A DNA stretch of 64,000 bases from Hydrolagus affinis (taxonomy: Eukaryota). The notes beneath the pieces are model-generated. The model ran no database searches and was not told where the DNA came from. It worked only from the letters and a program-made list of their open reading frames with translations. Position numbers and translations under genes: made by a program. Location of the stretch: positions 1-64,000 of the forward strand of contig JAAILG010001100.1 in NCBI GenBank assembly GCA_012026655.1, read 5' to 3'. This document shows, piece after piece, positions 2,518-63,717 of the stretch (position 1 is its first letter; each line of letters begins with the position of its first letter).

Positions 2518-14107
<11,590 letters not shown>

Positions 14108-41082: not shown

Positions 41083-41871
41083 TATATATACACACGCGCA
41101 CACACTCACTCGTATTTTTTTCCTTCTCTGTTTGCATTCTACATATCTTCCAACAAAATCTGTGATGGGGGTAGAAGGAGAGTGGCTTGGGTGAAAGGGG
41201 TTGAGCTTAGTAAACAGTTGAAAGCTATGACAAAGCAATAACTCAAGGATGTGGTTTGTCCATCGCTGGCAGTTTGGGGGTTAAAATCGAACATTTATGA
41301 GGTTAAAAGGTCTTGGTCGTTTGTTGGGGGGGAGTGGGTGGGTGGTGCGATGGAATTCAATTGGAAATGATCCATTTGCGGACTGACAGTAAAAGGTTGG
41401 GTTTAAACGACACTGTTCCAAGTGTTAATTACTTTTTACAACTCCCGTTTCAGCACGTGAGAAGCTGCTGTAAAACAAACTAACACAGGAATGGCCTCAT
41501 TCGGGACCTGTCGAACACCTGAGCGACCGGCTCCACACTCGTTGCTTCCGGTCACCCCCGGTCCTGGTTTGGTGTCAGGCTCCGCCACTGTTAAGCGCTA
41601 CGAATCGTTGCCCTATGTGAGGGGCGCTGTATAAATGCAAGTTGTTGTTGTTGGTGCGAACGTGCCCTGTCTCAGGCGTAAAACATCCCCATTTTCTCCG
41701 CACACCAGCGAACAGATTCCTTCGGAAACACCTGTGAAGTTGCTATCACTCAATTCGTCCATGAGGGTTTTGTCTGAATGATATGTCAACAGTGTTCCAG
41801 GCCTCCCCATCCACCTCATCCCACCCTCCCTCTCCCCACATCCCAATCCCAGAGCAAAGGACGGTCCCCGT

Positions 41872-42109
41872 TCACACAGGTGCGCGGTTCTTGTGTCGGG
41901 TTCCTGAGTAAGCCCACAGGTACTGCTGCACGGCCGAGCACGTGCTCTTGCCATTTGGCGGGTCATCACAGGGATAACGGAGAGACGTGAAGATGCTGAT
42001 CACAACTGCCAAGAGGATCACTGCCACCGCCAGAATCCACACCACGTTCCGATGCTTCAAGCATTTCGGGCACAGTCTGTCGACCAGGTCCGAGACTTCT
42101 TCCAACTTG
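41872..42109 (-). CDS. IRAG1: IRAG1 terminal exon, TM plus luminal tail
   Basis: [78 protein letters not shown]. Confidence 0.94.
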
Positions 42110-45100
42110 CTACGAGAGAGAAAGAGTGAGGGCAAAAGTTCTGTTATTCACATTCTGGCCATGAGATATAGGCACCCTTTTCCCACAATGATTGAGTTTG
42201 GTAGGGGTGGTGGTGTGTGTGTGGGGGGGGTGGGGGCGTGGAGGGGGAAGAGGCCCTTTCGCAATAGACATAGAAATATAATGTTCCTTAATGGAATTCC
42301 GCAATAAGGAATTCCATTCCGATACTCAATCCACCTCCCCCATAGAAGATTGCGTCCCTTCCTCACTTTTGAACACCCATCCTCCCTCCTCCCCACCACT
42401 CACCCCTTTTTTATATTGAATTCTTCGCCTTGCAACATCGTAATGAAAAAATTTATACAATGAAGTTACAGTTAGACTTCAGCCAGATTTGATTTTTTAC
42501 ACAAGAAGTGAAAGCACTATAATTGTCCACCAGGCTATGACTTCAGCCAGTGTCACTGAGCCACCATCAAGAAAAAAATGAATTATCTCATTCCACACGT
42601 CTCATGTTATTACACAAGAAAGTCCCCAAATTATAGACAAGTGTAACCAATGCCTCTGGTTTCCTTCAGAAAGGGATGAAAGCAGAAGTTCAACAGTCAT
42701 TTGCAAACCAACTGCAAATCTGCTTCCGTTGTTTGTGAGACGTTGCTGGGGGCAAACTGGTTGTGAAACAAAACACACAATCATTGCCATCTATGGTGCA
42801 TTATCCTATGGGATATCCTCCTGACTCAATACCAGCGTAAAAAATATTATTATTTAAGGTTATTATCACAAGTTGAGAATCTAGAATTTATATTATTTCT
42901 CCTCCAGCCTCCGCACAGTCACATGCAGCGTTCCCCAGGGCTCTGTCCTTGGCCTCCTGCTCTTCACCCTCTACACTCTCCCGCTGGGCGACATCATCCA
43001 TAGACATGGGGTAAATTTCTACATGTATGCGGATGACACCCAACTCTACCTATCCGCGTCAACCCTCGATTCCAGGGTTGACGCGGACTGCATGTCTGTC
43101 CGACATCGAGTCCTGGACGAGGGCAAATTTCCTGCAACTCAACGTGAACAAGACGGAAGCCCTCCTGATTGGCTCACGTCAGCGCCTCTGCACCTCAGGC
43201 ACTGACAACATCAGCGTTCAAGGCTCCTCCCTTTCCTGCTTCAAGGCTACTCAAAGCCAATCAGGAATCTGGGCGTCTTGTTCAACCCCGAGCTATCCTT
43301 CCTCCCCCACATCCGCTCCATGACGGGCACAGCCTTCCATCACCTCTGCAATATTGCCAGACTCTGCCACTACCTTACCCCCCCATGCCGCCAAAATTTT
43401 GTTGTTGTTGATGACTGCTTTATGATCGTATACCAGTTCAGAATGAGTTGTCCCCAGCTAAAGGTTTCTCAGGCAAGAGCTGAGATTCTGAATAAGAAAC
43501 TAAAATATCTGGCACAATTTGAAAGATTTTTAAAAAATCCAAACTCTATACTCAAATAAGATAATTAAATATTACAGTATTTGTTTTTGAACCACAGTCT
43601 TTGAAACTTCTCAAAAAGCTTCTCAGAAATTCACTGGAAAGTGAGTGGCTGGGCAATTTGTAGGTGAAACCTGGCTCCCAGTTTTCATATAGCAATATCC
43701 CCCAAATAGCTCTGTTACCAGTTAGAATGCAAAGTCCCACAGGGCAACAACTTGGTATTTTTTTTAGATTGTAGCTGCCAATTGTAGTCTCTTTGAATTA
43801 AAATATGGTGTGAATTTAAATGGAAATCTCTCACCTTCTGAAACCTGTTCTATGAATTCTGAGAGGCAAAGGATCTGTGCAAAATCAGCTCACAATCTGC
43901 AGCTGGAGATGATTATAGATACGATTTCCTTTCAAAACACATTGTGTGTGTCGAGCAAAACACTTTGCGCACTGGACATTCAACAATCAGCAATGGTTTG
44001 CAGAGCTAATTGTTAATACTGAGGTCTTGCCAAGAGCACTAACAACAAATTACATTTATACAGAGCCTTTCACATTGGGAGCAAGTTCCAAGGCTCTGGA
44101 CGGTCAGGCATTTGGTCCCGTGCAGGGAACTAGGATCAGGAGGGGTGGAGGGTGGCTGAAGGCTTGATCAGAGGGTCTTGTGACATGTGTTGAAAGAAAC
44201 AAGGGGTGAGGGAGTGAGGTAAAGGGACTGTGAGATGGAGTTCCGGAGAGTGGGGGCTGAAGGCTCACTGCCAATGGTGGGGTGGGCAGGACGGCTGGAG
44301 CCTGCTCAGCGGAGGGAACAGGTTGATATGGTATTAACAGGTCATAGAGGTAGGAAGGAGCAAGGATGTGGAGGGCTTTGAATGTGAGGACGAGGTAAGT
44401 TGGAAAGATTGAGGGAGAATGGACTGCACTGAATGGCACATGCCCTGAGCTCAGGGTAACTAACAGGTTAAGGAAGGACCCACCTGCTCTTTCTTTCCTC
44501 TTTGAGGCTGGGATCTGGGATCTCGTCCACACTCGCTTCCTCACCCTTCCCCTCCTCATCCTCCTCTTCCTCTGGCAACTCTTTCAGCTCCTTCTTCAGC
44601 TGGGCCTTCAAGCCTTCTTGGTAACTTTGAAACAATTTTAAAAAAACAAATTCAGTTTTGCCAGCAATCGAACGGTTTGTTCTGAGTGGATGAAGGCCTC
44701 AGGGCTGTTTGCCTTGTGCTTGTTTGTCCCTTGTGTCCTTCATTCCACCATCAGCAGACATGCTTTCATGCTTTAATCTCCGAACCAAGTTGGTTTTTAA
44801 GTGTTGAACTAAGAGTGTAAGTGTCAATGGATTCTAACCCCTTCCCAGCCATTTAGCAGCACAAAGTTAGCTTGAGAGAAGATTTCACCCTCATTATATG
44901 TCCAATGATAACAGGTGAAAGCACCAAAAGGCCACCCATTCCCTGCTCCCCTTCATAATGATGTTATACAACAACAACAACTTTGATTTACATAGCACCC
45001 TCCACCCCGGACGGCGTCTCAGAGCGCTTATAATGTCACTAAGGCAACAGGGAAGGAAATTTCTCTCCAATATCCTGTGGATCACCCCCCCACCCATATA

Positions 45101-48100
45101 AAATTGGACATTCACTTCATTTCTGTTTGTGGGGACATTGCTGTGTTCGCGAATTGTCTGCCGCGTTGGTCTATGAAATAAATAGTCACTATGCTTCGCA
45201 GGAATTCCGTCAAGCGCTCTGATGGGTGTGGAATACCAAGAGGTTTTGTTGTAAACATGTGAGGGAAAAGAGTCAGGCATTTACAGGAATGAGGATGAGC
45301 TATCACACGGTATCTTCAGGAAAGGAGCCTCAGTGAGATAACGGAGCATGTAACAGGACATCGAAAAATCTGATCAGATCCAAATAATACTTTCTCCAGC
45401 ACCCCCCCACCCTCAGCCCCCCTCCCTACCCACCATCCCCCACCTCCTCCGAGCAACTGATTATGCTTTAAGCATCTTCTTTTTTACTGTCAGAAGGTAC
45501 ACAAGCTAAAAAAAAAAGCAGGGAAAGATTCCAATTTTATTCTTGTGTTACGAAATAATAATCCTTGCCATTGATACAGCTCCTTTCACATCAAGAGGAC
45601 ATCTCAAAGCGTTTGACAGGATCTTCCTTAAAGTGTAACTGGCTGTTTCGCAGGCGAATGATGCAGCCAACTTGCATGCAGCAACGTCCCCAATTGTTTT
45701 TATACAGCGCTTTTTATGTTGGGAGGATAGCCAAGGGTTTGCAGCTGAGCTGGGGTGAAAAAGTGTGAAACAGTTACAAAATTAGTTTCAAAGATTTTTT
45801 CCCACACGTTCAGCATCGCTTAACCACGGCTTCAACTGTTCTGAGACAGTGATGTCCTATGACACCTCTGGCCAAGGCTGCTCAACCAGCTTTGTTAATA
45901 ATCTTTGCATTTGATATAGTGGTTTTCACATCAGCTAGATGTCTCAAAGCGCCTCACAGAACATTCTGTAAAGTGAATTGACTGTATATTTGTGGGCGAA
46001 ACGTGGCTGCCAATTGCGGACAGCAGGGTCCCACCAACAGTCGTGGATTGAGTGACGAATTTATTACTGTTTTTTTTTAGGGATTATTATTAGGCTTGTG
46101 GAGTAAGGAAACTTGCCCAAGGTTTCACCCTGCCAGGAATTGAAACCAGGTTTCTCACTTGTAAGGCGAGTGCTCTAACTGGATGAGACATCTGCCTGTT
46201 CAAGTGGACGTTAGAGATCCTTTAAAATAACAATGGAAGTTTCTCTCTCTCAGTCCTGGCTAACAATCTCCCGTATAAAATCGATCACTCACTCCATGGC
46301 TGTTTGTGGGACATTGCTATGTTGCAAACTGGTTGCCGCGATCTTGCGGACACTTTAAACTCTCGCAACATTACAAAGATCAGCGTTGTCAGCTTGTTAG
46401 CGCAGTTTAATAAGAAGCCCATTGTGAGCACAGGGTTTGCTGTGATACTACGTGAGCAAGTTGAGGTCAGAGCCCAGTGATGACAGGCGAAAGCATCAAA
46501 AGTACCTGGTCACAAAATGTCAAGTGAGAGTAGTTTACATTGCACGCGTGTGTGCGTGTATGTGTGTGCTTGGAGGCTTGGATGAGTATCCATTCTATAT
46601 TAGGGACATCCTTCAATTCCTTGCAGTGATCCTTTTTCCTGTGTCCGTCTCACCCTTTATTGTAGGCTTCCTCTTCAATCTTGGCCTTTGTCTCGGACTT
46701 GCTTATCTCATCCAGCTTGGCTTGTCCTTCAGCAGGCGCGTTGCTGCCGCTGGTTCCCACTCCGTTCTGCTTCCCACTTTCAAGTTTGCGGGGGGAAAAA
46801 AGATTCCAGAGAAGTTACAAATAGCGTGCTCGCCTCGCAAGAGAGAGAACCTGGGTTCATTTCCCAGGCAGGGTGGAATCCTGGGCAAGTTTCCTTACTC
46901 CGTACACCTCTGTTTACCCAGCAGCAAGTAGAAACCCGGATGTTATTCGATTAGCGGATTACTAAATTTGATGATTTGCCTTATTCCGGATGCTCTTGAA
47001 ACTCCACATTAAACAGAGTAAATAAACACCAGTTGAAATGTATAATAATAATAGTAATGATCCTTGCATTTAATATAACTCCTTATCATGTCTTCAAAAT
47101 GCTTCAAATTACTTCACAGAATATACTGTAAAGTGAACTGACTGTATATTTGTGGGTGAAAAGCGGCAGCCAATTGCACATAGCAGTGTCCCACAAACAG
47201 CCATAGGATTACCAAATAGGGGGATTACCAGTGTTTGTTTTTGAGATGATCTTAATAATCACAGTGTCTTAGTACTGAATATTTCCTTAAATAAGGCTTA
47301 ATTTTTGAAGTGCTGGAAAGTGTCTTTTTGGAGTGGGGAAGTGGGGCAGTTTAGTTTGTACAATACAGTAATATAATAGTAGAGTAATAATAATAATTTT
47401 TGCATCTATTACAGTGACTTTTACATGAGTAGGATGTACTTCACAGGATGTACTGTGAAGCGCAGTGACTGCGTGTTGGGCGAATGGAAAACAAAAGACC
47501 ATCAATAAACTTTGAAAATGTTTATGTGATGGGGTGTCTTACTTCTCCACGTGAGGGGTGAGTGGGGGGCCGCACTGCACCCCCATCCGGCTGATGGGGC
47601 TGCTGGGATTGCTGGGGCTGCTGGGGTTGCTGGGACCAGTGCTGCTGGGGCTGCTGGTGGTTGTGCTGGCGGCTGGTGGGTTAGTTGACTCTGGCTAGAA
47701 GCAAAAACACAATGAGCCGATCAGGAGAAAATCACACACAAATACACACACATACCCCCACACACAAACATACACACACACATACACAGATTGGCTGGGG
47801 CAGAGGGCAGCAGAGCTCACACACGCCATATGGCTGTCTCCTGAGGTTGTCTGACTCCTGAGGTCCACAGTGATAGTAATAATCCTTGCATTTGATATAG
47901 CGCTTTTCACATCTTCTAAACGTCTGAAAGCGCTTCACAGAATATACTGTAAAGTGAAGTGATTGTATATTTGAGGGTGAAACGCGGCAGCCAATTGTGA
48001 ACAGTAGTGTCCCACAAACAGTTGTGGATTGAAATGACCCAGTTATTATTGGGGGGGTTGGGGAGAGAGAAGGTTTCCTTCCCACTCGACTCCCATCAAC

Positions 48101-51100
48101 CCTGCAAGCCAAAGCCCTAATGGTGCAGACTGGTCCTAGCTGGACAAGGAGAACAGAAAGCTTAGCTTGCCAGGGCAGTGCTCTCAATAGCAAGCTGTGC
48201 AGTTTCAGCTGGTACTCCAGCAGTTACCCCAAACCACTCTCCCAAGCCTTCGCTCTTGCCCACCTGCACTGGATTATGCTCTGGACTTATAGTGGCAGCC
48301 TCCGGGGAGAGATCTTTAATCTTTTTGCTTCCGCCCAACTCCCAACATCAGTTTCCTCATCTCCGCTCCTAAACAGTTTGACTCTCACTGCTCCCCTGTA
48401 GCCATTCGCCCATAGGGACCAATCTTCATCAGGCAGCCCAGAGGGGATGGGGTGGTGGGGTGGTGGGGGGGAAACCTGACCTACCATGGTTAGTGTGGCC
48501 AGGGGACCTGAAGTGCTGGGAGGATGACCGGGGAAATTGATGAACTTTGGGACCACAGCTACGCTGACCCTTCGTCGAGGCACCGTCTGTCAGGGAGATA
48601 ACACAGTGTGAACATCCACAGGACACACAATAAACACAACAACCAATTAACAAGTTACATTTGTATAGCTCCCCTCATGTTAGAAAGACTTCCCAAAGCA
48701 CTGAATAATCAGGGCCTTGGACCCAAGTTGGGGTCAGAAGGAGAGGAGGCTGTGAGGTGTGGGAGGGTGGCCAAAGAGGGGACTTGAAAGAAGCAAAAGA
48801 AGGGGTGAGACAGATAGAGATCCAAAGTGTGGGGGCAGAAATGCTGAATGCCCAACCTCCAATGGCGGGACGGGAAGTGCCGGGGACTTAGTGTCTGCCG
48901 AGCTGAGGGTAGACAGGCCAATATGGGGTTATAAGGTCGGTGAGCAAGACCATGGAGGGCCTTGAATGTACGAACAAGGGTTTTGCACTCGATTCTCTGA
49001 GTGATGTGGAGCCAGGGGAGCCGGGCAAGAACAGGGATGATAGATTCCCAGAACCTGATGTGGGAGAGGACAAGAGCTGCAGAGTTGTTAATAATCTGCA
49101 TCTTGTGGACAAATAAATAGCACAAGGAACACAATTAACACAGACGATAATCAACACACAGCATACACCACAAACACACAGCAAACACCAGAAACAAATA
49201 GTGTTTGCTGAAGCTGAATCGATCTCTCTAACTGAACACAGCTAAAACCTGCTCTTACCTTTCCCAGAGTCAGAGACATGGATCGGGCTGTCCTCGGGAT
49301 GCCGTCATCTGAGAAAAAATTGGGAGAGTCAATCGCATCTCTCTCAAGTAATGAAACTGGTGTTAACAGTAGCTGTGCCTTTGTAACCTCTTGATCTCAC
49401 TCCCTCGATCCCATGCGTCTTACTCCCTCTCCCCTCTTCTATCTAATAATGTGTGTTGTCTCTGTGTGTGTGTGTTGCTTGTATGCGTGTGTGTTGTTTG
49501 TATGTGTGTGTGTTGTTTGTGTGTGTGCGCGTGTGTGTGTGTTCAAGTGCAATGGGGCTGTATGACTGTGACAAACTCCTGGCACATCATGTATAAAAGC
49601 CAACAAGAAGGCATGACCACACTTGAGAATCACCAACATGGCTCAGCAATCAGATTCTGTGTGAACTATCACAATAGCGACAACATTGTATTGATACAGC
49701 GCCTTCCCCCTGGGCTAGTGCCCTGGAGAGCTTGAGCCACGGTGCTTTGGGGAATTACATAACATTGTTGGCCCACATCTGGACACAGTGCTGCTTTTGC
49801 ATTCAATTTGAAATCAGCTATTAAATTTGGAATCATCTCTCTCCCCCTCTCTCACTGCTCTCCCCCACCTGCCCCACCACACAGCCCCTCTAACCATCCC
49901 CCAACCACCCTCGCAAATGGTAAAGTGAGCCAGAGGGGGCACGGACCCTACCGCCGTTCTCTCCATACGAGCCATAGGTGCGGTTTGAGTTCTGATTGGC
50001 CAGTTTTTTATACTCGGTTAGCTCTGCGTGATCTTTCTCGTACGTCCTCTTGAGGTTCTCCACGTACTGCATCATCACCTCCGTGGCCTTGGACATGCGC
50101 TTTTCCTGCAAAAGGAAACCATAATCCCCACAGTAACAATCTTGGTGCCTGCTGCAGTGTCTCTCGCGTCGCTGGGAGGACATCCCGAAGCGTGAGGCGG
50201 AACGTTCCCGTAAAGCAGAACGACTGTGTTTTGTGGGTGAACCCGGCAGCCAATTGAGATGCAGCGAAGTCCCACAAACAGCTACAGACCAAAAATTATC
50301 GATTTTATTTAGAGGACTGTTGTCCAGGGGAGATCAGGAGAGAGAGAAAAACATGGTTCTGCTTTCGATTTGAGCTGTGGGATCATTAACCATTGACCCG
50401 AATGTGTGGACGGGTCCTCGGTTGAACACCTCACTCGAAGGACAGCACCTCCGACAATGCAGCGTTCCCCCAGTACCCAACAACTAGACCGAAAGTAAGG
50501 CTTGAATGCACGACTATCTGTCCCAGAGGTAGGAGGGCTAGTAACTGAGTCAGGCTGACTAGTGGATCATCAAATGAGCTTCGCAAGCTGGACACCGCTG
50601 ACCTCGATCCTCAACAAGTAAAACCTCAGCGCGGAATGGTTCTCACCTGACGCACGGCTCCGACCATTTCAGCTCGGCTCGAGAGCCTCTCAGCCAAACG
50701 GTGCAGCACAGAGATGGTCTCCAGCAGCCGCTGGTAAGCGTCCCGGTGATCAGGCCGTTGCCAGAGAGTGGTGGAAGACTGGAATATACATAAATAAAAA
50801 AGAGAAAAAAGGGAATTTAACAATACTAATAGAAATAATAATGTTAGTGAGAGCAGCGGCAGGGGGGGTGGTGGGGGAATGAGGGATAAGGGGACATGTG
50901 TCTGACATGTGTGTAAACTCGTCACTGTGCTTAAGAGTATCCAAACTAAACTGAGAATGCCATGTATCCTACCTACGCAGGGAAATCCCAGAGATAGATT
51001 GCTGGAATCTAGAAATCCTTGCATTTGATACAAGGAAACCAACATCTGAGAATAAAACAAGGGAAGTCAATCATCTTTCTCAGGTAAAAGGAACTGGTGT

Positions 51101-54100
51101 TCACAGCAACTGCACCTTTATAACCTCTTCTTCTGACTCCCTCTATTCCATTCATCTCACCACCACAACGCTTCATCTAACACAACAACTTGTGCCCCCT
51201 GCAGGTCAGAGTCTCGGAGCGCTTACCAGTGACACTGAGGTTGGGGGAGGGAGGAGGTGCTCGTAAGCATGATTGAAGAGGAAGGTCTTCAGTTGTGATT
51301 TGAAAGAGAGGAAGGAGGGGGCAAAGTGGGGGGAATGGGGGAGGGAGTGCCAAAGCTTCGGGGCATAGTGGCTGAAAGCGTGAGTACTGATGGAAAGGAA
51401 GGGAGGTGCCAGGGAATGAAGCAATAATGATAATAATATAGTCCTTACTTTTAATATTGTATTTAACAATCCTTAACGTTGGAAGAACATCTCAAAGCAT
51501 TTGCCCCCCCAACCCCCCAGGCCCCATGAGCTCCTCTTTGTAATCCCCTCACCTTCAGCTCAGTGGAGAAGTTCTCCAGCTCCTTCTCAGTATTGTCCTC
51601 AGTCAGGTTTCTCTCCCTCTCTGCCAGGTGGAGCCGAGCCTCCAGTGTGTAGCTGTCATTCTTGAACGCCAGCGACAACTGAATAAACGTGTTCTGTGGA
51701 TCAACAGAAACAAAACAACGTTGGGAGGGGTGTCAACAGAACAGGCCGTGAGTGGGTAATAACAACAACTTGCATTATATAGTTCCCTTCACATCCCTGT
51801 AAGGCAAAAGTCACTGTTAAAATCAGGCCCCGATTAATTCCCTCTGCTTCATGACTATCTGCTGTTTCCTCCCAGAAAACCCTCCCTCTATTCTCCTGCC
51901 CCCTTCCTCCCCCACCCTCCACCACCACAAAACCCGGTGAAGCAAACCCAAACCAATCAATCAAACAAAATTACATTTATATAGCGCCTTTCACATTGGG
52001 AGGACGTCCCACGGCGCTGAACAGTCAGGTAGGGACTAGAGCAGGTGGGGAGTAGTCGGGGTAGGGGGAAGGAGAGTAGAAAAATTGACTGTATATTTGT
52101 GGGCGAAACCAATCCAATTTCGACACATTCATTCTCGCAGTTGACACACACTCTCAATTGCATCCTCAAGACGTCACCAAAATAGTCGGACAGGATGTGT
52201 TACTGTGGGTTTTCAGTGACTGTGCGTTTTGTCGGCAAGTCCGGCAGCAGCCAAGATGCAGCCAACGATGCCCCACAAACAGCCGTGACGTGGACGATCC
52301 ATTGATCCAACGAAGTGCTAAAGTTCCAGCCAAACAGAAGTTCCCGATGGAATCCGGTTGTGTAACTCCCCGCAGTTTGGTTCGGTAATGGGTTTCCACG
52401 GGTTTCAAACCGAAAGTTAGACGAAGGGTTGATTGAGCATTCTGTCTAAAACCTTTTTAAAAGAAATTTATGGGGACACTGCTGTACGCAATTGGCTGCC
52501 GCGTTTTGCCTACAGGTACACAGTCAATACACTTTACAGTATATACTGTGAAGCGCTTTCAGACGTCTAGAAGACATATATCAAATGTAAGGATTATTAC
52601 TGTTAGTTATTATTATTTTAAAAAAAACATTACAAGAGCTCGGGAGACTTTCCTTTGGAAAACAATTATATGGACGGGACTAGTTTTCCTACAAGTATCT
52701 GAGTTGGAGGCTATCAGTCACATGGGCTGATGTTGAGGGATTCCCTTAGGGGCTGAAACTGGAGCTTTATTCCACACCGGGTGGTGGGTGGGAGGGGATC
52801 GCGGGTGGTGGAGATTGGAGGGCGCACATGAGAGCTGAAATTCGATGTCGATAAGTCATCGACCTGAAACGTTAACTCACTTCCCTCTCTCTATAGACGC
52901 TGCTGCCTGCCTGCCTGCCTCCTGAGTGTTCCCAGCCACTTCTGGTTTATTGGGTATGAATTAAATGTGCTTCTTTCGGCTCGGAACCTGGAGCTTGTTC
53001 GAAGGTTGTTGTGGGATCGGAAAGCGTTCTGGTGTCAGATGCCCTGCCAGGCCTTGCTGAGGCTGGGAATGTGTGCTCTGACCAGCGGCCAAACATGCAC
53101 ACATCACCACTATCCTACATGAGACGTCGAGGCCGCCTTTGATGCAGCCTCAAGATATTTGGACTCACTTTGCCTGTATTTCTGGTGGGGGTTTTTGTTA
53201 ACCCTTACCAGCCCAGTGCAGCGCAGAGAACAAACCTAATAATAATGTCAAACATCATCCTTGCATTTACAATTGCACCTGATCACGTGTTATTGAGACA
53301 TCTCAAAGCACTTCACATGATATAGCGAGGGATCATATATTTTGTGGGCAAAACGTGGCTGTTAATTGTGCGCAGCAGTGTCCCACAAACAGCCATGGAG
53401 TGAATGACCACTTTATTTTTGAAGGTATAATTGCCCCAGGAAAGCGATTCGCCAATCAACTAACAACCGGATTCCTATTTGCTGTTAGATAAACAGAGGC
53501 ATGTGGAGTAAGGAAACTTGACTAAAGTTTCATCCTGCCCAGGGAGCGAAGCCAGGTCCCCTTACTTGTGAGGTGAGAGCTCTAATCGCTACACTACAGG
53601 ACTCTAGTACAGTACAGTAAAGGACAGAGAGCAAATCCACAGTGCAGAACAGAGAGCAAATCGACAAGACAGAACAGAGAGCAAATTTGCCGCACAGAGA
53701 AAGTATGATGATTGAATTGGAACCAAAAGTCACTCACCTCGACCTCTTTCTCTGTGAGAGGAGGAACGCTGCAAACACAAGCAGAGACAAACTGTGACAA
53801 GCTGTGCCTGTGAACACCGTACAGTCAGGCCCTTTGTACATTCTAATAACAATTCCCTCCTTATGCAACTGTGGCAACTTACATTGCCCCCAAGAGGGAA
53901 TTATTTGATATTAAAATAAAAGACCAATTTCATGCAACCATTGTTCCTCACCCCTTCCACACTTGTCATTTTGATTTTGTTTTATTTGGTTTTCTCCTTC
54001 CACACTTTCAAAGTTTACCTTAAGGCTTTCTCCCCTCACTCCCACCTCCCCCCACTCCTGCCCCCACCCCACCATCTGTGTGAGGAGCTGTGAGATGTGA

Positions 54101-57100
54101 ACGTGAAAGGCGCTGTGTAAATGTGAATGTACTGCATTGTGTGTAATTTGACTGTGTCCTGAGGAGTTACAAATCCATTGGTATGTTGATCCCATTTCCA
54201 TCTCCCATCTCCAACAGTCTACTTTTCCAACAATCAGCATAATGGGCTGGAACATGATGAGAGCCCAATCAGACAGTTTGGGAGACTGGGATCCCCCCAA
54301 TGTAGAGAGGAGGATAGAGGAAAGGGAGAGGAGAGGAAGTCAGAGGAGAGGATGGTAGAGGAGAGGAACACAACAACAACAACATAATTACATTTATAGA
54401 GCTCCTTTCACGTCGGGAGGACGTCCCAACGAAGATGGAGGAGAGGGGGAGAAGATAGTGGAGGAGAAAGTAGAGGAGAATAGAGGAGAGGAAGATGAGA
54501 GGAGTACAGTGGAGAGGTGAGGAGCAGCAGGGAAGGCGAGTGGGGAGAGCAGAAGAGAGAAGAGAGGAGAGCAGAGGAGAGGAGATCAGTGAGAGCAGAG
54601 GAGAAGACAGCAGAGGAGAAGAGAGAGCAGAGGAGTGGAGAGGGGGGAGTCAGGAGAACTTCAGAACTCAATAACTACACAAATAAACACTAAGGCTCAA
54701 AACTGTGGCCTTTTCCACTCACGGCCCTCCCAGCTGAAAGGTTATGGGAAGTGGCGAGCCGGCAGAATGAACAGCTGGAATTCCTTACCCTCCAGGCAGG
54801 GTTCTGTGAACCTTCAGCTTCCGCAGCAGGGAGTCAGGGATATTAGGCATGATGTCCGTATCACCTTTGCTCTCCTTGTTGGCTGCTGTCCCGGGGGCAG
54901 GGGATGGACCTTCAAAATACAGACCATTTCAACTTTCACAGATCAAAAATAATAATAACAATGATTGGACTTGATACAGTGCTTTTCACATCGGGAGCAT
55001 GTCTCAAAGTGCTTGACTGTACAGCGGATTGGCTGTAAGCGCTGGACTGTTAAGGATTTGCACCTGAGAGGGTTTGGAATCAGGAGGGGTGGAGCGCAGG
55101 GAGTAAGAGCGTGACACGGTGCACTTGAAGAGGGTCTTGATACAGGATTTGAAGAAAGCCAGGGAGAGGGGCACCCTGATGGAGTTCCAAAAGGTTGGGG
55201 CAGAGAGGCTGAAGGCCAGAGCGATGAAGGTATGGTGGGCAGGGCAGTGGATGGAGCAGGGCTGAGTGGTATAGAAACAATAACCGTGCCTCACGCCCTC
55301 TCACCTTTCTCTTGTTCAGCTGACTCGCTGAGATCTGGCAACCTTAATCCAGACAGGTTCTGGTTCCGCATCAGTTTGTTCTCCTGGTTGAAGTGAAGCA
55401 GAGCCTTTTATACTGATCTCAATAACACAGTGGATGAAGCGCAAGAGCAAGCAGTGACTGAACTAAATCACCCAGTCAAGTGGGACAGTGAAGGGAATAC
55501 TGTAAAGGCAGCAAACCATCATTCCCATGGTACGTAAGCCACTGGCAAGTGTTCCAGTTGCTTTGCCAGCTAGGTAACAACTCATTCGCCAAAGGCCGAA
55601 TAACACCGGGAGCAGTGGGTTTACTGAATGGGAAGTCAGTCTGATCACACAACGCTGGTGAGCTGGAGATCAGACCTGTTTTCAGCTGGATGGCTAGTTT
55701 ACAGCAACAATAACAATTTGCGTTTATATAGCGCTCTTCGCGAGGCATAGCATCTCGGACTGCTTCAAGATTGTATAGTTTGTTGCTGAGCTCAGGAGAG
55801 AGAGGAGGTGACCGCGGATACAGTTGAAGAAGAAAATCTTCAGTTTCGATACGAAGATGGACAAAGAGGGGCTGAGGCGGAGGGATCGAGGAGGAGAGTT
55901 CCGTAAACAGTGACCAAAGTCAATTGTTAAGTTCTGAGCCATGATGCATTTTGTTATGTTACCCCTTTCCCGGATGAAGAGCAGTTTTCTGATCAATCCC
56001 ATCCATCGTTCCTAACGGACGGTTAATGCAGCGAAATAATCTCATTGCAGGTTTCCATGCAAAACCCCCAAACAAGCAAGCATGCTCCATCACAACTACA
56101 ATCCCCTGCAAATCCCGGGGTGATTCCCACAGACATTCATCGATGGCAGAAGGAAATAGAAGCAATCAAGCGTGAGCATTCAGAGCTGCGGTGTTAAAAG
56201 CGTGCCCTCGTCATTCTCTCCTCTGTGAGCCTCTGCGAAACAGAGTGGGAAAACCTCGGTTTTTACTGTGCCCCGTATCCACCCCTACACACACCCTCCA
56301 CACTTAACCCCACCCCGTCCTCTTTATTCTTTTTGAAGCCGACAGCGAATGAAGCAATCCAGGGTTATGTGATGGTGTGTCAGTGTTGGTTACATGCCAT
56401 ATCCTTGCCTGCCCAGTGACATGGATCAGCCAAAAACAATCTCATGCTTATAGCTGCCCAGTCTTTGCTCTGCGCATCCCGTAGCTGTGCCGAGCGTTAG
56501 ATTTGGGTGACGGCCACCCCCCACACCTTGACGTCCGCCCCACAGCCCTGCACCTCCGTGCTCGCCGTGCACCTCCTCCCAGCCTCAGCCTGTGACGACA
56601 CGCCTCACGTACCTCTCGCAGCTTGGCCAGTTTGTGCAGCTTCCCATGGGGCTGCGGGGAGGGTCCCCTGCAGGCGGGGGGCGCGGGGCAGCCTCCTACG
56701 GATGCCTCACCGAACGTAAACGCTTCCTTGGTCATCTCAGGCGGTGAGGGGGGCCCGTCGTCGAGCTCCACACACTCCCACGACACAGCGCGCAGGAGAG
56801 GAGGCTGCGAGCTGAACGACTTGATCTCGGCTTTGCAGGGGGTCTTGGAGCGGGAGGGGGTCTGAGCGGCTTGGGGTACTTTGCACTCCACCGCCACTGC
56901 CTTCTGCTGGACAGGCCTGCTCGAAGGTAAGTCCGCTGCCACGTTAGCATCCCTGCCGAGGTTTGTTCTGAGCCGGTCACTGGTGTTTTTCAATGGTGTG
57001 GGATCACTGTGGGCAGCAGGTACAAGCTGAGGAATCTCTCTGTGATCGAGGGGAACTAGCTTTGTCAGAAGGGAAACCTTTGCAGCTGGTGACACCTCCC

Positions 57101-60100
57101 TGGCTTCGTGCACGTTTCTGGCTGGGGAGAGTTTCCTGAGGTGCTTCTAGTAAACGGTTCAAAAGAAAAAAAAACGTTCAAGGAGCTTGCAGTTCATCGA
57201 CACTCACAGCGGGAGGATAATAAAAGCAACAAGAAACCACTACCTTAGCTGGGAAATTTAGCTTTTTGTCCTCCATTCTGCCAAGGAACTTCCAAACGCT
57301 ATCAATGAACGGCATCTCACCTCAAGGTAATGCTCCACCAACACTTGCTCATCATCACTCCGGTTAGCAGTGCTCCGGCCGACAAACCCTCCTTAAGACA
57401 GCGTCACTTCTGAGCGAGCGCAGTAAATTCCGTACAAGCTAAACCCAGGAAAATTGATTTTCCCTGAACTCAGGAGGACAGCGCGACAGGACTCAAAAAC
57501 TTCACTTGTCACAAAGGAACTTTGACAAAATGATGACAAAAATAGCAACAACTTGGGACTTTTAGATGGCGTCTTTCAAGCAGAAATAGTGTCTCAAAGC
57601 GCTGCAAAGTGACCGAGTAGGGAGCCTAGTGAGAGAGAAGCGAGAGTTGACCACAGTTGATATCAGGGAAGTAGGAGGAGGGTGGGAATGTCATCTCCTG
57701 GCACCGCCAGGGAACCAGATAACTGAGGAACCTGGTGCATGTGTGTCTGTGAGTGGGTGAAGCTCGCTGCTCAATCGATGGAAGTGGAAGGCGGAGATGA
57801 TTCAACCAACAGGAGGCGACGCAGTCAAACTAGCAACAGAAATCAGTGGGCCCCGTTAGCACTAAGCTTTCCAAGTCACCAACTTCACACAGAAATAGAA
57901 CCAGTAAGGAAATCATCAGTCAAAATGGATTTCATAAGATCGCAAGATTGGTATGGACCAGCTTTGGCTTGTCTCATCTTATCCGCCCAATCATCCCCCC
58001 ATCACAGTCATTTATCTACTTTTAAAAAAAAGACCGAGTCCCACTATCCTGGCCGCAACTTGGCAACCTTTTCGGATCGTTAATTACTGGAGACTCGTTC
58101 TATTTATGTAAGGGTTTCAAAGCGTCCAGAATGTCCACAAATTGTTGAAAGCATTCCTATCTTTCAGTTTGATTTTTTTTTCTCTTGCGAGTTCCTGAAG
58201 GAAAATTTGCAGAAAACCAGCTTGGGAATTCTGGACACTCTTGAGAGACCACGTAAATGGGAGCTAGCTACATCTAGAGTCAGGGGGACTTTCTCCCTGA
58301 TAGTGGAACCTGCTTGGGATCGCATTCCAATGCTGAACCCAATGTCTTTGTGCTGGAGTTTCGTTCTTCTTCTCTCTTTGAAACTGAGCCATTTCAGTTC
58401 CACAGGCTTCCCACCATCAAAGGGCCACAGTGTACCTGCCAAAGCTCCTATCTGATCCACACTCATCAACTAAAACATAATTTTTCCACTCGACGTCAGA
58501 CTGGACTGAACTGAAGTAAATCGGTGGATTCGCAGTTATTCCGCAAGACAAATGTAGGACCCACACTGTTTTGACAACCACCACCTCCGCAATACTAACG
58601 ACACTCTGGCCCTTCCCGCGCATGGTGAGATTATGCACAGGGCCAGGCGCGAGCGCAAGGCTGCTTTACCTTCATGTCTTGGTCTCGGTTGGGTGACAGC
58701 AATGGTTTCTCCCCCACCTGTCCCAAAGGTAAGGACACACCTGTCCCATTCACTGCCGATGCTTCAGAACCTAAACATGATAATAATAATAATCCTTGCA
58801 GTTGATGTAATGCTTCATGTGTTCAAGACATCCCAAAGTGCTTCACTGAATTTATGGACTGTATAGTGAATTGATTGTATATATTGTGGGCTAAACATGG
58901 CAGGCAATTGTGGACAGCAGTGTCTCACAAACAGTCGTGGATTGACTGAGCAAATTTTTATCCAGGGATTATTATCCCGGGAAAGCAATCCGCCAATTGA
59001 TTTACAAATGGGTTCCTATTTAATGCTAGGTAAACAGAGGCGTGTGGTGTAAGGAAACTTGCCCAACATTTCTTCCTGCCAGGGAACCCAGGTCCTCCCG
59101 CTTGCGAGGTTGAGCGCTCTAAACACTGAGCTAAGGACTCCACGTATTTATGAATTGCGCTCCGTTACTAAAGGGAGAACTGTTGAAAGCACGTGCGCCA
59201 TGAACACAATTCAACATAATTGTGATTGAGATAGCACCTCTCAAGTCGGGTGGATCATTGTCTCAAAGTGCTTGAGCACTTCCACACTTCATTTATACCA
59301 TATAAAACCATGGCCTTCTCGCCTGCAAAATCAATAATTACAATTTGTACTCAAATGACCTCCTTCAGTGAGGATAATGTCTTGGAGTGCTTCACAGTAC
59401 TATACTAGGGTCGGAAGTTGAGTGAGGAGGAAAGGGAGAGAGGGCCGGGGGAATCTTTAGTCCGGATCTGCATAATATCTGCATAAATAACGCTATATAA
59501 TTTATAATAAGTTTAATTGGCTGTAAATTGCACAATTAAGGTCCCCCCCTTGCAATTCTCTCTGTGCACACATGGCTCATAATGTAGCAAGTGCTTACAT
59601 GTGATGCAAAGTAGGTTGTATCTTTCTGCTGAACCTTTGTCAAATACTATGGAAGTGCCGCCTTGTTGAGTCAATAACTACTTTAAAAGCTCCTTGGAAA
59701 TTAAAGCTGCTTGTAGCGAGGCTGGGACCTTGGCAAACCTTTCTCAGTGTCTGCACGAGTGGTTAAGCCACGTGGGCAGTGAATATCCATCAAAATCCCT
59801 CTAGCTCTGAAACTTGTCAGAACGACACGACTGAACTAGTTTCCCCCACCGCATTACTGAAGTCTCACTCACAACAACAATGACTTATATAACATCCCTT
59901 ATATAACATCCCTCATATGGGGTAGTGTCCTGCCAAGGAAAACCCACATCAACAAGAACAAGTTACATTTATACAACACCACAAGGGGTGCTGAGGTTGT
60001 TGTTCACGTACCGGTTTGGTGCTGTGCTGTCACTGAATGGCTCTGAGATGTGTCCAAGGAAGATCTTGGGCTCAGTGATGGGGTGAGTGCTATAACAAGC

Positions 60101-63100
60101 CAAAGGAGATGATCACATAGAGGCCCAATGTGCAGGATTCTTACATGCAAGGATTATTATTATGCGTTCCCATTCGTTATTCAAGCATGCTTTAATAATA
60201 ATGCTTGCATTTGATATGCAGCCTTATCACGTCGTTGAGACGTCCCAAAGCATTTCACAGAATATACTGTAAAGCATGCATTTTGGAGGGTGAAACACAG
60301 CCGCCAATTGCGCACAGCAACATCCCACACACAAGCTAAAAAAAAGCTTTGAAATACCCTCCGCTTTGCAGATCACGATATTTTCTTAAACAGTCACGTT
60401 AATGAACACATTTTGCCCACGCCTGTCATGGCACCAGGTTCACGAGCCAATGAAACCCCCCCCACCGGAGAAGGCACTGAGACAGACAATCACAATGTGG
60501 CTCTCCCCAAACCCTACACTACGTGTTCTCAAGGTCCTGACTCTGTGGGGCTTGAACCCACGTAACCTCCTGGCTCAGAGGTGAGGGTTTTTCTGGCACC
60601 AAGCAATCCACCCTCTGCCTACCTGTCGGTGACTCGGGCATGCCGGGTCTGGACCGGCGGCTCCGGCGGGACAGGAACCTCTCGCTGACCTTCTTGGCCT
60701 CCTCCAGCAGCTCTGTGTTTTTCTTTTTGTCATCATCCGACAGATCCACATCTGGGAGCTCGTCATTCAATAGATCATACACGTGGCCATCGCCATCTGC
60801 TGCCAAGGAAAACCCACATCAACATCAACAAGAACAAGTTACGTTTACACAATGCCATTCAGTTCGGGAGGACGTCCCAAGGCTCTGGACAGTTAAGGGT
60901 TTGCACGCAATCTAGTGGTTGGGATCAACGACCTCTTGGGATCAAGAGGTCATTGGAGGTGAGGTGGGAGAGTGGCTGAAGGCATGATCAAAGAGGAGGG
61001 TCTTGAGAGGGGCCTTGAAGGAGGCAAGGGAGGGGGCGCGAGGCAGAGGGGCTCTGGGATTGGAGTTACAAAGGTTGTGGGGGCAGAAATTCTGAAGGGA
61101 AAGGGACATGGAGCAGGACAGCACCCGTCTAACGGAGGGCATTTGAACATTGTCTTAGCACGACGTTGAGATATCTCAAAGTGCTTCACACTTGTAAAGT
61201 GGTGTGACTGTGTATTTTTGGGGCAGACTGGTTGCAGCAATATCCCATTAACAGCGATGATTGAATGGCCAATTTGTTTTAACTTAGGGGATTGTCGGGC
61301 GTGAGAATCGCAAGGGAGAAACTGTCTTCTCTTAATTTGAAGCTGTTCTCTTACCGACAGATGTCAGGGAACTTGCTGAGGACGAGGATACTCTGGAATT
61401 CCGGCTGGACCTGCTCTGAACAGGGCTGTGTGATCTGCAGGGAACAGTGAGACAGGGAAAAATTTACACTTCCTGTAAAACCACAACGATATAATTAGAA
61501 TAGTAATAATAATTCTTGCAGTTGATATAGTGCATTAGTACATCGTTGAGACTTCACCAAATATATTGTAAAGTGGATTGATTGTATATTTTATGGGTGA
61601 AGAGTGGCAGCCAATTGCAGACAGAAGTGTCCCACAAATAGCTGCGGATTGCGTGACCATTTTCTTTTTTTCGGAGGGATTATTACAGTTTGCAGAGTCA
61701 GTCCATTACTTGAGTACATTGAGCACTTTCGCACATCAGATATAAAGGCAGATGGAAGCTCTCTTTGAACACAACCTATGATTAATCCCCAGTGTTGGTA
61801 CATTAATCACCCTCGTTCACTCTTTGACGGAGGCTGCAAAGTGGGTTTAGATCTACTTTATTGATGTAGCATTTTTTGCTCATCCAGAATTTGCACTTAA
61901 CTACAGCACTTAATATCCCAGCCTTTTTCTAGATAAGAACAGCAGAAAACTGACTTCAAAGCTAAGGCCGAATACAGCAATTTGCCAAATTCTTGTCTTT
62001 CCGAGACGCTACATGAATATTAGCCGCTTGGAATCTCTCCCCTGCAGTAATTGTGCCCAATTTCCTTGCACTTTCTCTCATGGACTCATGCCCCCAGAAA
62101 CGGAGATGCAAACTGCATCAAATTCATTCAGTCCAGCCTCTCTCCTTTGCGGTTGGCGGGGAAAGGTAGTTTGGACAGCAACCCAGATCTTCGCTGCGAA
62201 AGGCTATCTGCTTATTTTTACTGCACAATAATTCATCCATTTGCAAAAAAAACACAGCAATAAAAGCATCTGATGATGCAAAGCCATTGCACAACAGAGA
62301 AACCGATCTGAACATGAGTTCCTTATCATGGATTTAACTGCCTCATCTCCCACCCATCGTTCTAACAAGATAATTACTGTGGGGCTGTTGGGTTTCAAAT
62401 CAAAACAAAATATTTTATTTTATAGAGCTTTAAAGAGTTTTCCTCCTTGAGCGTGGAGAAGGTTTTAAGACTCGCTCTCCGCTCTGGAAGCAACCGATCA
62501 ACGTCTTGTAAAACAGCACGTGTGAGATACAGCAATAAATCTGCGAGGGACGTCCTTTCTGAAGGCAAACTGGTCCACACAGACACAGGAGATCTATGTC
62601 GACTAGTTTTGGAGCCAGACAGGAATGCACTGTCATTGGCAATTTGTTGCGGTGGTAACTAACTGGGTGGCAACTTCCTGATTACATCAGGGAGATAAGA
62701 TGGTATCTATACTAGACGATGTCAACGGTTCAAGAGTTCTTTGCATTCGGTACACCCTCTAAATGTCAAAATGACCACAGTGTTGTTTAATAAGATACTG
62801 CCTCCAGCAGGTAAAACAGAACAGAACCTGAAAGCCACTGTCGAGGGAATTTCCAAATCACAAGAGGATTTGTGCTGGGTATCGAACTGATGTAGTTTTA
62901 GAAAGAGGGTACGGGTTTAGAGATGCAATTTCAGNNNNNNNNNNNNNNNNNNNNNNNNNNNNNNNNNNNNNNNNNNNNNNNNNNNNNNNNNNNNNNNNNN
63001 NNNNNNNNNNNNNNNNNNNNNNNNNNNNNNNNNNCTCCGATGGTGGGGCGGTTCGGGCGGGGGGCTTGGAGCAGGCCGAGTCCTGCTGAACGGAGGGTCC

Positions 63101-63717
63101 GGGTGGGCTTGTAGGGGGAGAGTAAAGTGGTTAAATAGAGCGGGGCAAGGCCGTGTAAGGCCTTGAAGGTGAGGACGAGGATCTTGAACTTGGACGAGGA
63201 CATAGGTAATGAACGAGGAGAAAGGGTCGCCAGGAAAGGTGGCTGAGACAAGGATAACAACAACTACAATGCCACAATTACACAGCACTTTTCAAATGAG
63301 AAGGAACTGGACAGTTAAGCACACTTTAAAAAAAAATCTTGATGCTTTGATGGGAAGGCATTTGGGTGGGTGTTAAATAATAAAAAATAAGAATCCTTGC
63401 ATTTGATATAGCGCCTTATCATGTTGTTGAGACGTTTTAAAGTGCTTCACGGAATATATTGTAAAGTGGATTATTGTATATCATGTGGGTGAAACATGGC
63501 AGCCAATTGCGCACAACAATGTTAATTATTCTGAGTTCTGGAGATACTGAAGGGCTTTCTTTATACGGACATATTTTCCACATTCTATTTCCACTTTAAG
63601 CATAAGTGGCACTTACCTTAGCAGTGTGGATGGATCAAGCTCTGGGATTGTTGTGATGGCAGCCTCTGGGAGGATGATTGTGGGTGTACTGCTTGTTCTG
63701 GCTTCAACTGCTGTAAT
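41872..63717 (-). CDS. IRAG1: IP3 receptor-associated cGMP kinase substrate IRAG1 (MRVI1), 5'-partial
   Basis: Exons (high to low): 63717-63617, 61434-61355, 60799/60796-60623, 60089-60012, [58717-58670 and 57391-57321 tentative], 57146-56613, 55383-55305, 54909-54789, 53768-53738, 51693-51553, 50778-50647, 50105-49952, 49308-49259, 48586-48485, 47694-47543, 46776-46654, 44624-44484, 42109-41872. Contains the PKG-Ibeta-binding [21 protein letters not shown], the coiled coil [17 protein letters not shown]...[16 protein letters not shown], phosphosites RSMS and RRRVS, and a C-terminal TM. Confidence 0.94.
42900..43390 (+). mobile_element. L2-type LINE reverse-transcriptase core fragment (degraded)
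   Basis: [39 protein letters not shown], then [11 protein letters not shown] after a frameshift. Confidence 0.9.
44484..44624 (-). CDS. IRAG1: IRAG1 acidic exon
   Basis: [25 protein letters not shown]... Confidence 0.9.
45896..46180 (-). mobile_element. SINE family A
   Basis: Near full-length copy. Confidence 0.88.
46654..46776 (-). CDS. IRAG1: IRAG1 exon
   Basis: GKQNG...[15 protein letters not shown]. Confidence 0.9.
47543..47694 (-). CDS. IRAG1: IRAG1 exon with P-S-[S/N] repeats
   Basis: [35 protein letters not shown]...VEN; phases fit neighbouring exons. Confidence 0.85.
48485..48586 (-). CDS. IRAG1: IRAG1 exon (RRRVS PKG site)
   Basis: [15 protein letters not shown]. Confidence 0.93.
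49259..49308 (-). CDS. IRAG1: IRAG1 exon (RSMS phosphosite)
   Basis: [17 protein letters not shown]. Confidence 0.94.
49952..50105 (-). CDS. IRAG1: IRAG1 coiled-coil exon
   Basis: [39 protein letters not shown]. Confidence 0.95.
50647..50778 (-). CDS. IRAG1: IRAG1 coiled-coil exon
   Basis: [40 protein letters not shown]. Confidence 0.95.
51553..51693 (-). CDS. IRAG1: IRAG1 coiled-coil exon
   Basis: [42 protein letters not shown]. Confidence 0.95.
53255..53604 (-). mobile_element. SINE family A, long variant
   Basis: Full-length copy. Confidence 0.85.
53738..53768 (-). CDS. IRAG1: IRAG1 micro-exon (31 nt)
   Basis: [10 protein letters not shown]|gtgagt. Confidence 0.92.
54302..54655. repeat. 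(GGAGA)n-like low-complexity tract with an embedded LINE tail
   Basis: Read directly from the sequence. Confidence 0.85.
54789..54909 (-). CDS. IRAG1: IRAG1 exon
   Basis: [22 protein letters not shown]. Confidence 0.92.
55305..55383 (-). CDS. IRAG1: IRAG1 exon
   Basis: [26 protein letters not shown]. Confidence 0.93.
56613..57146 (-). CDS. IRAG1: IRAG1 large exon
   Basis: [10 protein letters not shown] (human PPLLRGLSWD) ... [10 protein letters not shown]|gtacgt. Confidence 0.85.
57321..57391 (-). CDS. IRAG1: IRAG1 tentative exon (phase 1 to 0 linker)
   Basis: Open frame [23 protein letters not shown]|gtgag supplies the phase change needed to join the flanking exons. Confidence 0.45.
58670..58717 (-). 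CDS. IRAG1: IRAG1 tentative small exon
   Basis: ggacag|...GAAG|gtaaag, 48 nt, frame-preserving; no recognisable homology. Confidence 0.4.
58780..59142 (-). mobile_element. SINE family A, long variant
   Basis: Full-length copy. Further partial copies lie near 1500, 4600-4930, 7460, 11000, 16150, 24890, 33750, 36670, 45560, 46820, 47050, 47880, 52470, 60200, 61510 and 63390. Confidence 0.85.
60012..60089 (-). CDS. IRAG1: IRAG1 exon
   Basis: [21 protein letters not shown] (human [21 protein letters not shown]). Confidence 0.82.
60623..60799 (-). CDS. IRAG1: IRAG1 exon, PKG-Ibeta binding region (tandem CAGCAG acceptor)
   Basis: [50 protein letters not shown]. Confidence 0.93.
61355..61434 (-). 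CDS. IRAG1: IRAG1 exon
   Basis: [26 protein letters not shown]. Confidence 0.85.
62935..63034. other. Assembly gap (100 N)
   Basis: N run. Confidence 1.
63617..63717 (-). CDS. IRAG1: IRAG1 exon
   Basis: [12 protein letters not shown] (human SPTPTIVLTGDA); donor AG|gtaagt; exact acceptor uncertain. Confidence 0.75.

Follow-up and report, generated by a model that had tools for sequence, protein, structure and literature searches.

Whether the luminal end of a cartilaginous-fish IRAG1 can still act as a KASH peptide, or only descends from one, is the question raised by a 64,000-nucleotide stretch of the Hydrolagus affinis genome (contig JAAILG010001100.1, positions 1 to 64,000, hereafter the window). 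Mammalian IRAG1 (MRVI1) is a scaffold for PKG-Ibeta and IP3R1 at the ER, and its paralogue LRMP (Jaw1/IRAG2) is the KASH protein KASH6, known from a SUN1-KASH6 structure (PMC10827754). The status of LRMP as KASH6 and its relation to Fue and KASH5 are already described in the accessible text of PMC3787381.

On its minus strand the window carries an intact IRAG1 gene with 775 of 874 identities to the IRAG1 of Callorhinchus milii (874 aa). The model comprises 868 residues in 19 exons, with every intron GT-AG and no internal stop, and the ATG of the short form is located at contig position 64833, just beyond the window.

41872..63717, minus strand: the part of the IRAG1 gene in the window, 18 of the 19 modelled exons
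49952..51693, minus strand: MRVI1 coiled-coil core, three exons (the IP3-receptor-binding region in mammals), from Pfam MRVI1, gene model and tree
41872..42109, minus strand: last coding exon of IRAG1/MRVI1 with juxtamembrane helix, transmembrane (TM) anchor, luminal tail and stop, behind an AG acceptor in phase 2
41980..42045, minus strand: TM helix, limits approximate, from the hydrophobic run and the AlphaFold2 helix
41875..41979, minus strand: luminal tail of 35 residues, the last 22 homologous to and colinear with the LRMP/KASH6 peptide, from profile score, register scan, shuffles and alignment

A tree of the coiled-coil core with 51 hand-chosen rows pairs the window gene with C. milii IRAG1 (100/96) and places both in an IRAG1 clade of 16 rows (100/100). 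LRMP and a third vertebrate paralogue fall outside this clade, and vertebrate rows are separated from invertebrate rows (100/99). Tree position and the Pfam MRVI1 match identify it as the orthologue of mammalian IRAG1, with which it shares one C-terminal TM and a same-register tail whose Trp and His/Gln occupy matching columns, the identity of the coiled-coil core being about 77% (C. milii versus macaque). The PKG-Ibeta and IP3R regions are 81% and 89% conserved among chondrichthyans, and by analogy to mammals the window IRAG1 would bind both partners and be phosphorylated by PKG. Downstream of the gene are AMP deaminase exons (3679-13057, plus strand) and link-domain exons of the LYVE1 type (31353-33657, minus strand), neighbours that accompany human IRAG1 as well; in one rodent model (P0121) MRVI1 is fused to a link domain, which agrees with this gene order.

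The last exon is 88% identical to C. milii IRAG1, and its Pfam MRVI1 match (PF05781, positions 454-533) extends to the final profile position with an E value of 2.3e-12. Translation of the minus-strand frame 41872-42147 gives a hydrophobic helix followed by a tail of 35 residues with RAPV at its end, closed by a TGA stop at 41872-41874. The peptide quoted in the first-pass annotation is indeed the end of this frame; of the limits given there, 41975 falls one base off the frame (codons start at 42108-3k). One public DNA run, which may be the source of the assembly, equals it over 41750-42200 with zero differences, and in a DNA run of a related organism the tail differs only by a 9-base insertion; two of the four runs compared had no coverage of the exon. 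AlphaFold2 prediction of the exon alone gave a helix at exon residues 16-44 (pLDDT 87-89 over residues 21-40), corresponding to the TM helix only, with the tail below pLDDT 50 and having no fixed fold by itself, and a PDB sequence search with the exon returned only chance matches to cytochrome oxidase TM segments (E 0.12 or worse). In the Heterodontus IRAG1 model (P0011), the TM is skipped by splicing into the middle of the last exon; an in-frame AG is present at this join site in the window (41944-41946, minus strand), with a poor pyrimidine tract.

The kinship of the tail was measured with a 22-column LRMP profile constructed from the 28 distinct tails found among 37 LRMP-type representatives, which were chosen by a W-P motif and a PPV end and included no IRAG1. 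The last 22 residues of the window protein scored +15.2 bits. Among the 2023 remaining ORF ends of the window the maximum was -23.2 and the mean -60.8 bits, and none of 200,000 shuffles reached the score of the window tail. Register shifts of 1-11 residues gave -53.4 bits or less with a peak only at offset 0, placing the C-terminus in exact LRMP register with no extension. The gapless match of the last 15 residues to LRMP, as proposed in the first-pass annotation, is thereby borne out, and 10 ungapped identities over the last 24 residues to the LRMP of the same genome (contig C20683) extend the colinearity beyond those 15. Left-out true LRMPs scored 33.3-84.8 bits, all above the window tail, indicating that the latter is related but degraded. 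By part, the window tail obtained 7.4 bits in the helix, 6.7 in the strand and 1.5 in the pocket, compared with about 15 for the pocket in LRMP, and the C. milii tail obtained 14.9 and 6.7 bits in helix and strand. As the profile is LRMP-specific, with the true nesprin-type tails of this genome at -23 to -38 bits, the score stands for kinship and not for SUN binding. On this sequence evidence, the window tail and the KASH peptide of LRMP are homologous. Another true-KASH last exon in the window was considered and rejected, since no other ORF end (n=2023) rose above that maximum.

The tails of the two paralogues are colinear over the last 22-24 residues and share a Q-x-L-W-x-aromatic stretch, His -6, Pro -1, Val 0 (numbered back from the last residue) and a similar distance from TM to end. 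They differ in that LRMP has a QPPV or PPPV end (35/36), Leu-8, Trp-21 and a di-alanine signal-peptidase site, the latter placed after the TM (10.1101/2022.12.10.519934, accessible text), whereas the window tail has RAPV, Thr-8, Cys-21 and no such site; di-alanine is found at this place in LRMP tails and is absent from IRAG1.

Tails were collected from the window and 10 further cartilaginous fishes (n=11), with the Chiloscyllium and Pristis models excluded as ending before the last exon. The C-terminal register is identical in all 11, and Trp-13, His-6, Arg-3 and Ser-20 are invariant, demonstrating that the tail is conserved among sharks and chimaeras, a point on which the first-pass annotation had made its reading depend. 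Pro-1 is retained in 2 of the 11 tails and lost in all nine elasmobranch ones, shark and ray ends being RAQV, RAQA or REQV, and at position -8 both chimaeras have Thr, the seven sharks Ser or Pro and the two rays Leu. On the LRMP profile, C. milii IRAG1 reached 22.6 bits, and the seven sharks -1.8 to 9.9, whereas the two rays lay at about -23 and -26 and none of the 28 bony-vertebrate IRAG1 rows exceeded -10.7, making the chimaera tail the most LRMP-like among the IRAG1 tails sampled. Mammalian tails, nearly invariant among themselves, scored -15.6 to -20.4 bits with a PTEQ-type end, in contrast to RAPV and +15.2 in the window. The register is kept with other ends (PTEQ, RTEQ, RNPE, PTPE, PTAE) in mammals, crocodilians, coelacanth, sturgeon, gar and bowfin, while the tail is shortened in lungfish and bichir and lost in percomorphs. 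The suggestion that this lineage's IRAG1 retains a partly intact KASH is therefore right in that the relic is least eroded in chimaeras, but the relic itself is family-wide, since mammalian IRAG1 is colinear too.

The terminal motif was tallied over 150 representatives (50%-clusters), sorted by best match and filtered by hydropathy for a C-terminal TM. Ends of the form xPPx were found in 0 of 17 IRAG1s, 35 of 36 LRMPs and 20 of 34 invertebrate proteins, as well as in 0 of 12 members of the third vertebrate paralogue and 0 of 1 cyclostome protein; at the level of single matches, none of the 116 TM-bearing IRAG1s (of 122 matches) ends in this way. Among invertebrates such ends occur, for example, in hemichordates, starfish, scallop, mussel, snail, annelid and nemertean, together with centipede, tick, cockroaches, damselfly and mantis shrimp. 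Of the cyclostome homologues, the lamprey models have no TM at their end and the tail of the hagfish model is short. The proposal that the IRAG1/2 ancestor was a KASH protein gains support from this distribution, for which the simplest reading would be a KASH-type end in the bilaterian ancestor and loss of Pro-2 on the IRAG1 stem.

Nine invertebrate MRVI1-family proteins with a TM and an xPPx tail (P0141, P0145, P0148, P0185, P0208, P0222, P0241, P0260 and P0262, from hemichordates, starfish, cockroaches, centipede, damselfly and tick) are uncharacterised KASH candidates. The H. affinis genome also contains a third MRVI1-family gene (C22301:58-198, C151926:552-695 and C143480:258-398), matching a clade known from gar, bichir, duck and snake, whose members possess a TM without a KASH-type end (the 0 of 12 given above). 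Separately, C19:11675-11842 (plus strand, L016) is the fourth PF10541-positive KASH exon of this genome; it ends PPPF, diverges in sequence from the three nesprin-like ones, and could be nesprin-4 or KASH5.

Binding of KASH peptides by SUN proteins, in the accessible text of the structural literature, requires the terminal carboxylate and PPPX in the SUN pocket, with Tyr-7 and Leu-9 buried and Cys-23 optional (PMC10827754, 10.1101/2020.06.19.161265, PMC6527376, PMC3585024, PMC13757650), and changes of Leu -9 or Tyr -7 are described there as abolishing binding in vitro (10.1101/2020.06.19.161265, PMC6527376, PMC3585024). With one C-terminal TM and 35 residues between it and the stop, the window protein fits KASH topology (luminal peptide of about 20-40 aa). 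Three sites in the window tail correspond to these binding features.

41875..41886, minus strand: terminal RAPV replacing the xPPx pocket motif, from the translation and the tally of ends
41893..41895, minus strand: His -6, matching H549 of KASH6 and Tyr -7 of nesprins, present in 11/11 chondrichthyans (PMC10827754)
41899..41901, minus strand: Thr -8 in the LRMP Leu column, equivalent to the buried KASH Leu -9, from the alignment and the accessible text of PMC6527376

KASH6 His549 occupies the Tyr position one residue nearer the C-terminal end (PMC10827754), and the offset between -8 and -9 follows from the alignment of H549 with the KASH Tyr. Animal KASH ends obey the pattern [PATHQL]PP[QTVFILM], rare ones lacking Pro-2 (PLPV, PSPT) and plant ones having only Pro-1, as far as the accessible text of PMC4050730 describes them. 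RAPV departs from the animal pattern at -3 and -2 and keeps Pro-1 and Val0; Arg at -3 is also seen in the RPPV and RPPM ends of invertebrate homologues. In sum, register, His, Pro-1 and Val0 are still present in the window tail, and Pro-3, Pro-2 and Leu are gone; the window species additionally has Ala at -12, where 10 of the 11 chondrichthyan tails have Pro. The degeneration of PPPx to RAPV recognized in the first-pass annotation is thus confirmed, and with two of the three terminal prolines missing a firm nuclear grip is not likely. The functional KASH envisaged there is disfavoured by the off-pattern RAPV, by Thr in place of Leu-8 and by the loss of Pro-1 in 9 of 11 chondrichthyan tails. 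No study of a single Pro-2 substitution was found in the accessible portions of the literature. The Pfam KASH model PF10541 did not match the window tail, nor did it match true LRMPs from the same genome, C. milii or of mammalian type. Prediction, without alignments, of three copies of SUN1 (C. milii 700-897; a full-length SUN protein in that species) with three copies of the window tail scored 0.53, compared with 0.37 for an unrelated control, a difference that counts neither for nor against binding.

Nesprin-1/2 KASH domains (PF10541, with four scoring genes in this genome) resemble the window protein in being tail-anchored with a luminal peptide of about 30 residues, and differ from it in the PF10541 match and in the surroundings of the disulfide cysteine. 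Two cysteines are found in the window tail.

41968..41970, minus strand: first luminal Cys (-31), a possible partner of Cys -21, aligned with Cys in most chondrichthyan and tetrapod IRAG1 tails
41938..41940, minus strand: Cys -21, in the Trp column of LRMP and invertebrates by alignment, Cys in 8/11 chondrichthyan tails

The first-pass annotation had compared the luminal Cys at -21 with the nesprin -23 Cys used for the SUN disulfide. The residue is present at -21, but the equivalence is rejected, as it shares its column with the conserved LRMP/invertebrate Trp, W534 in human KASH6 (PMC10827754). The nesprin-type Cys is likewise absent from LRMP in the accessible text of PMC3787381, and also from KASH5, and is thus optional among KASH proteins. 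In nesprin-1/2 a kink proline steers the peptide to the SUN cysteine (10.1101/2020.06.19.161265, accessible text); with no Pro at the -11 kink and the Cys at -22 in nesprin register, this route is unlikely for the window tail. Given the second Cys behind the TM, an internal disulfide would be the likelier use. Both cysteines are lost together in Pristiophorus, gar and bowfin, and only one is kept in Heptranchias, Sorex, lungfish and sturgeon. At window position 41958, three luminal codons are missing relative to C. milii and to the DNA run of the related organism, which shortens the spacing of the two cysteines from 12 to 9 residues.

Constraint on the tail was assessed by identity. In a comparison of C. 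milii with 10 bony vertebrates (tails without gaps), IRAG1 shows 78% identity in the core and 29% in the tail, and LRMP, for which the 10 comparators are not taxon-matched to the IRAG1 set, shows 60% and 72%. Among nine full-length chondrichthyan IRAG1s, identity is 64% in the tail, 89% in the core and 51-57% in low-complexity regions, which ranks the tail at the 45th percentile among segments of 22 residues. C. milii IRAG1 and LRMP are 50% identical over the last 22 residues and 47% in the coiled-coil cores, with the flanking low-complexity regions and the TM aligning poorly. The tails are as alike as the cores, showing that the tail has not drifted freely in this lineage. Chimaera proteins evolve slowly, which accounts for part of this likeness and with which the short tree branches agree.

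A second, unexpected link leads to the KASH5/Fue family. KASH_CCD, mostly with EF-hand_9, is present in long IRAG1 models of sawfish, beluga sturgeon, pipefish, catfish and gar, the sawfish model (P0124) being annotated as IRAG2 yet located inside the IRAG1 clade, and these domains also occur in C. milii LRMP, two hemichordate proteins and one scallop protein. Only the MRVI1 domain was found in 5 of 8 invertebrate models and four other IRAG1 models scanned; alligator IRAG1, the one tetrapod model scanned, is without the EF-hand and KASH_CCD exons, unlike fish and chondrichthyan loci. Of three EF-hand plus KASH_CCD loci in this genome, one on contig C704 matches LRMP (97% in the EF-hand exon) and one on C3558 has long IRAG1 as its best match (65% versus 50% and 48%).

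C3558:21650-42022, minus strand: open exons (loci L047-L050) for EF-hand and KASH5-type coiled coil, best match to the N-terminal half of sawfish/sturgeon long IRAG1
C14065:1286-3770: third EF-hand plus KASH_CCD locus

The C3558 exons cover sawfish residues 23 to about 850 in order and the window's contig resumes at about 960-1023, the two contigs being unjoined in the assembly and tied by best match and order only. From these matches the C3558 exons are likely the 5' half of the window's IRAG1 gene, and this genome would encode a long IRAG1 isoform. The C14065 locus and the third MRVI1-family gene are possibly two halves of a KASH5 duplicate. EF-hand_9 and KASH_CCD are shared by long IRAG1 models with the EF-hand dynein adaptors KASH5/CCDC155 and zebrafish Fue/Lrmp, of which KASH5 binds the dynein light intermediate chain and activates motility (PMC10071310). 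By analogy, dynein binding is a candidate property of long IRAG1; KASH5 and Fue, however, end in a true KASH, whereas the long form would end in the degenerate tail.

Taken together, the tail is probably a relic KASH on an ER tail anchor, not likely to form a stable load-bearing SUN complex, and the best reading is that the relic is best preserved in chimaeras. The bilaterian ancestor would have resembled zebrafish Fue/Lrmp, with EF-hand, coiled coil, MRVI1 coiled coil, TM and KASH, and its gene would have duplicated in early vertebrates, with LRMP retaining KASH. On the IRAG1 stem Pro-2 would have been lost first, followed by decay that differed between clades: Leu-8 in chimaeras and sharks, Pro-1 in sharks, rays and tetrapods, the terminal hydrophobe in bony vertebrates and the whole tail in percomorphs. 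Without firm SUN capture, IRAG1 would spread over the ER and, by analogy to mammals, hold PKG-Ibeta beside the IP3 receptor; the moderate conservation that remains probably serves membrane insertion or an internal Cys pair, with weak SUN affinity possible. Mammalian IRAG1 is described as ER/SR-located in the accessible text of PMC10298018. Several observations count against a relic: heterologous mammalian IRAG1 was seen perinuclearly (same source), the register is kept in 11/11 tails as a pocket-bound carboxylate would need, the 50% tail identity against 47% in the core implies that some constraint persisted, and the Pro-1/Val0 of RAPV, the RPPV/RPPM homologues and the PLPV, PSPT and plant ends leave room for deviating motifs.

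It is unlikely, though worth weighing, that the chimaera tail is a working non-canonical KASH, whose helix, beta-strand, His and Pro-Val would give SUN affinity and enrich IRAG1 with PKG-Ibeta and IP3 receptors at the outer nuclear membrane; the missing di-alanine site would deprive it of LRMP's off-switch. The positive helix and strand scores, the identity to the paralogue, the invariant register, Trp-13 and His-6, the existence of non-PPPX ends (PMC4050730, accessible text), the restriction of the di-alanine site to LRMP and the full-length SUN1 of C. milii all speak for it. Against these stand the changes of Pro-3, Pro-2 and Leu-8 together, the absence of Pro-1 from 9/9 elasmobranch tails, the Ala -12 and three-residue deletion of the window species, and a tail that diverged far faster than LRMP's. 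The boldest form of this idea, improbable in our view, would make chimaera IRAG1 the seventh vertebrate KASH protein, combining, in a long isoform with the C3558 exons, a KASH5-type EF-hand dynein adaptor, PKG-IP3R scaffold and SUN-binding RAPV; if true, an uncleavable RAPV tail would couple cGMP-gated Ca2+ release to nuclear-envelope mechanics. Quite improbable is a repurposed tail, in which the Cys pair would form an internal or dimer disulfide, the Trp/His stretch would serve an ER-lumen partner or insertion, and the KASH likeness would reflect descent only. The replacement of the LRMP Trp at -21 by Cys with a second Cys after the TM in most chondrichthyan and tetrapod tails, the joint Cys losses, the near invariance of mammalian tails and the importance of the LRMP luminal region for ER targeting (PMC10298018, accessible text) agree with it, but the four single-Cys lineages and the percomorphs that manage without a tail do not, and no luminal partner was found in the accessible literature. 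That the LRMP likeness is due to chance or to an assembly or annotation artefact is scarcely credible, being contradicted by the null distributions and register scan, the intact gene model, the same tail in 10 other cartilaginous fishes and the matching DNA contigs.

No report of IRAG1 as KASH-derived, or of a long EF-hand IRAG1, was found in the full-text literature, outside which most subscription papers fall; an IRAG review, in its accessible text, ties KASH only to IRAG2, and the accessible main text of an MRVI1 proximity-labelling paper names neither SUN1 nor SUN2. Automatic annotation already marks the EF-hand/KASH_CCD domains. The KASH ancestry of the IRAG1 tail is real, and the probable relic is apparently undescribed.

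Its recognition groups IRAG1, a well-studied cGMP/Ca2+ scaffold of smooth muscle and platelets, with LRMP and KASH5 as members of an ancient family that probably began as a link between nucleus and dynein. It also directs attention to uncharacterised KASH candidates among hemichordates, starfish, molluscs, annelids and arthropods. On a single scaffold, the natural ends PPPV, QPPV, RPPV, RAPV, RAQV, PTPE, PTEQ and none provide a test set for the tolerance of the SUN pocket, and the long fish and chondrichthyan IRAG1 would be a candidate ER-resident dynein adaptor even with a dead tail.
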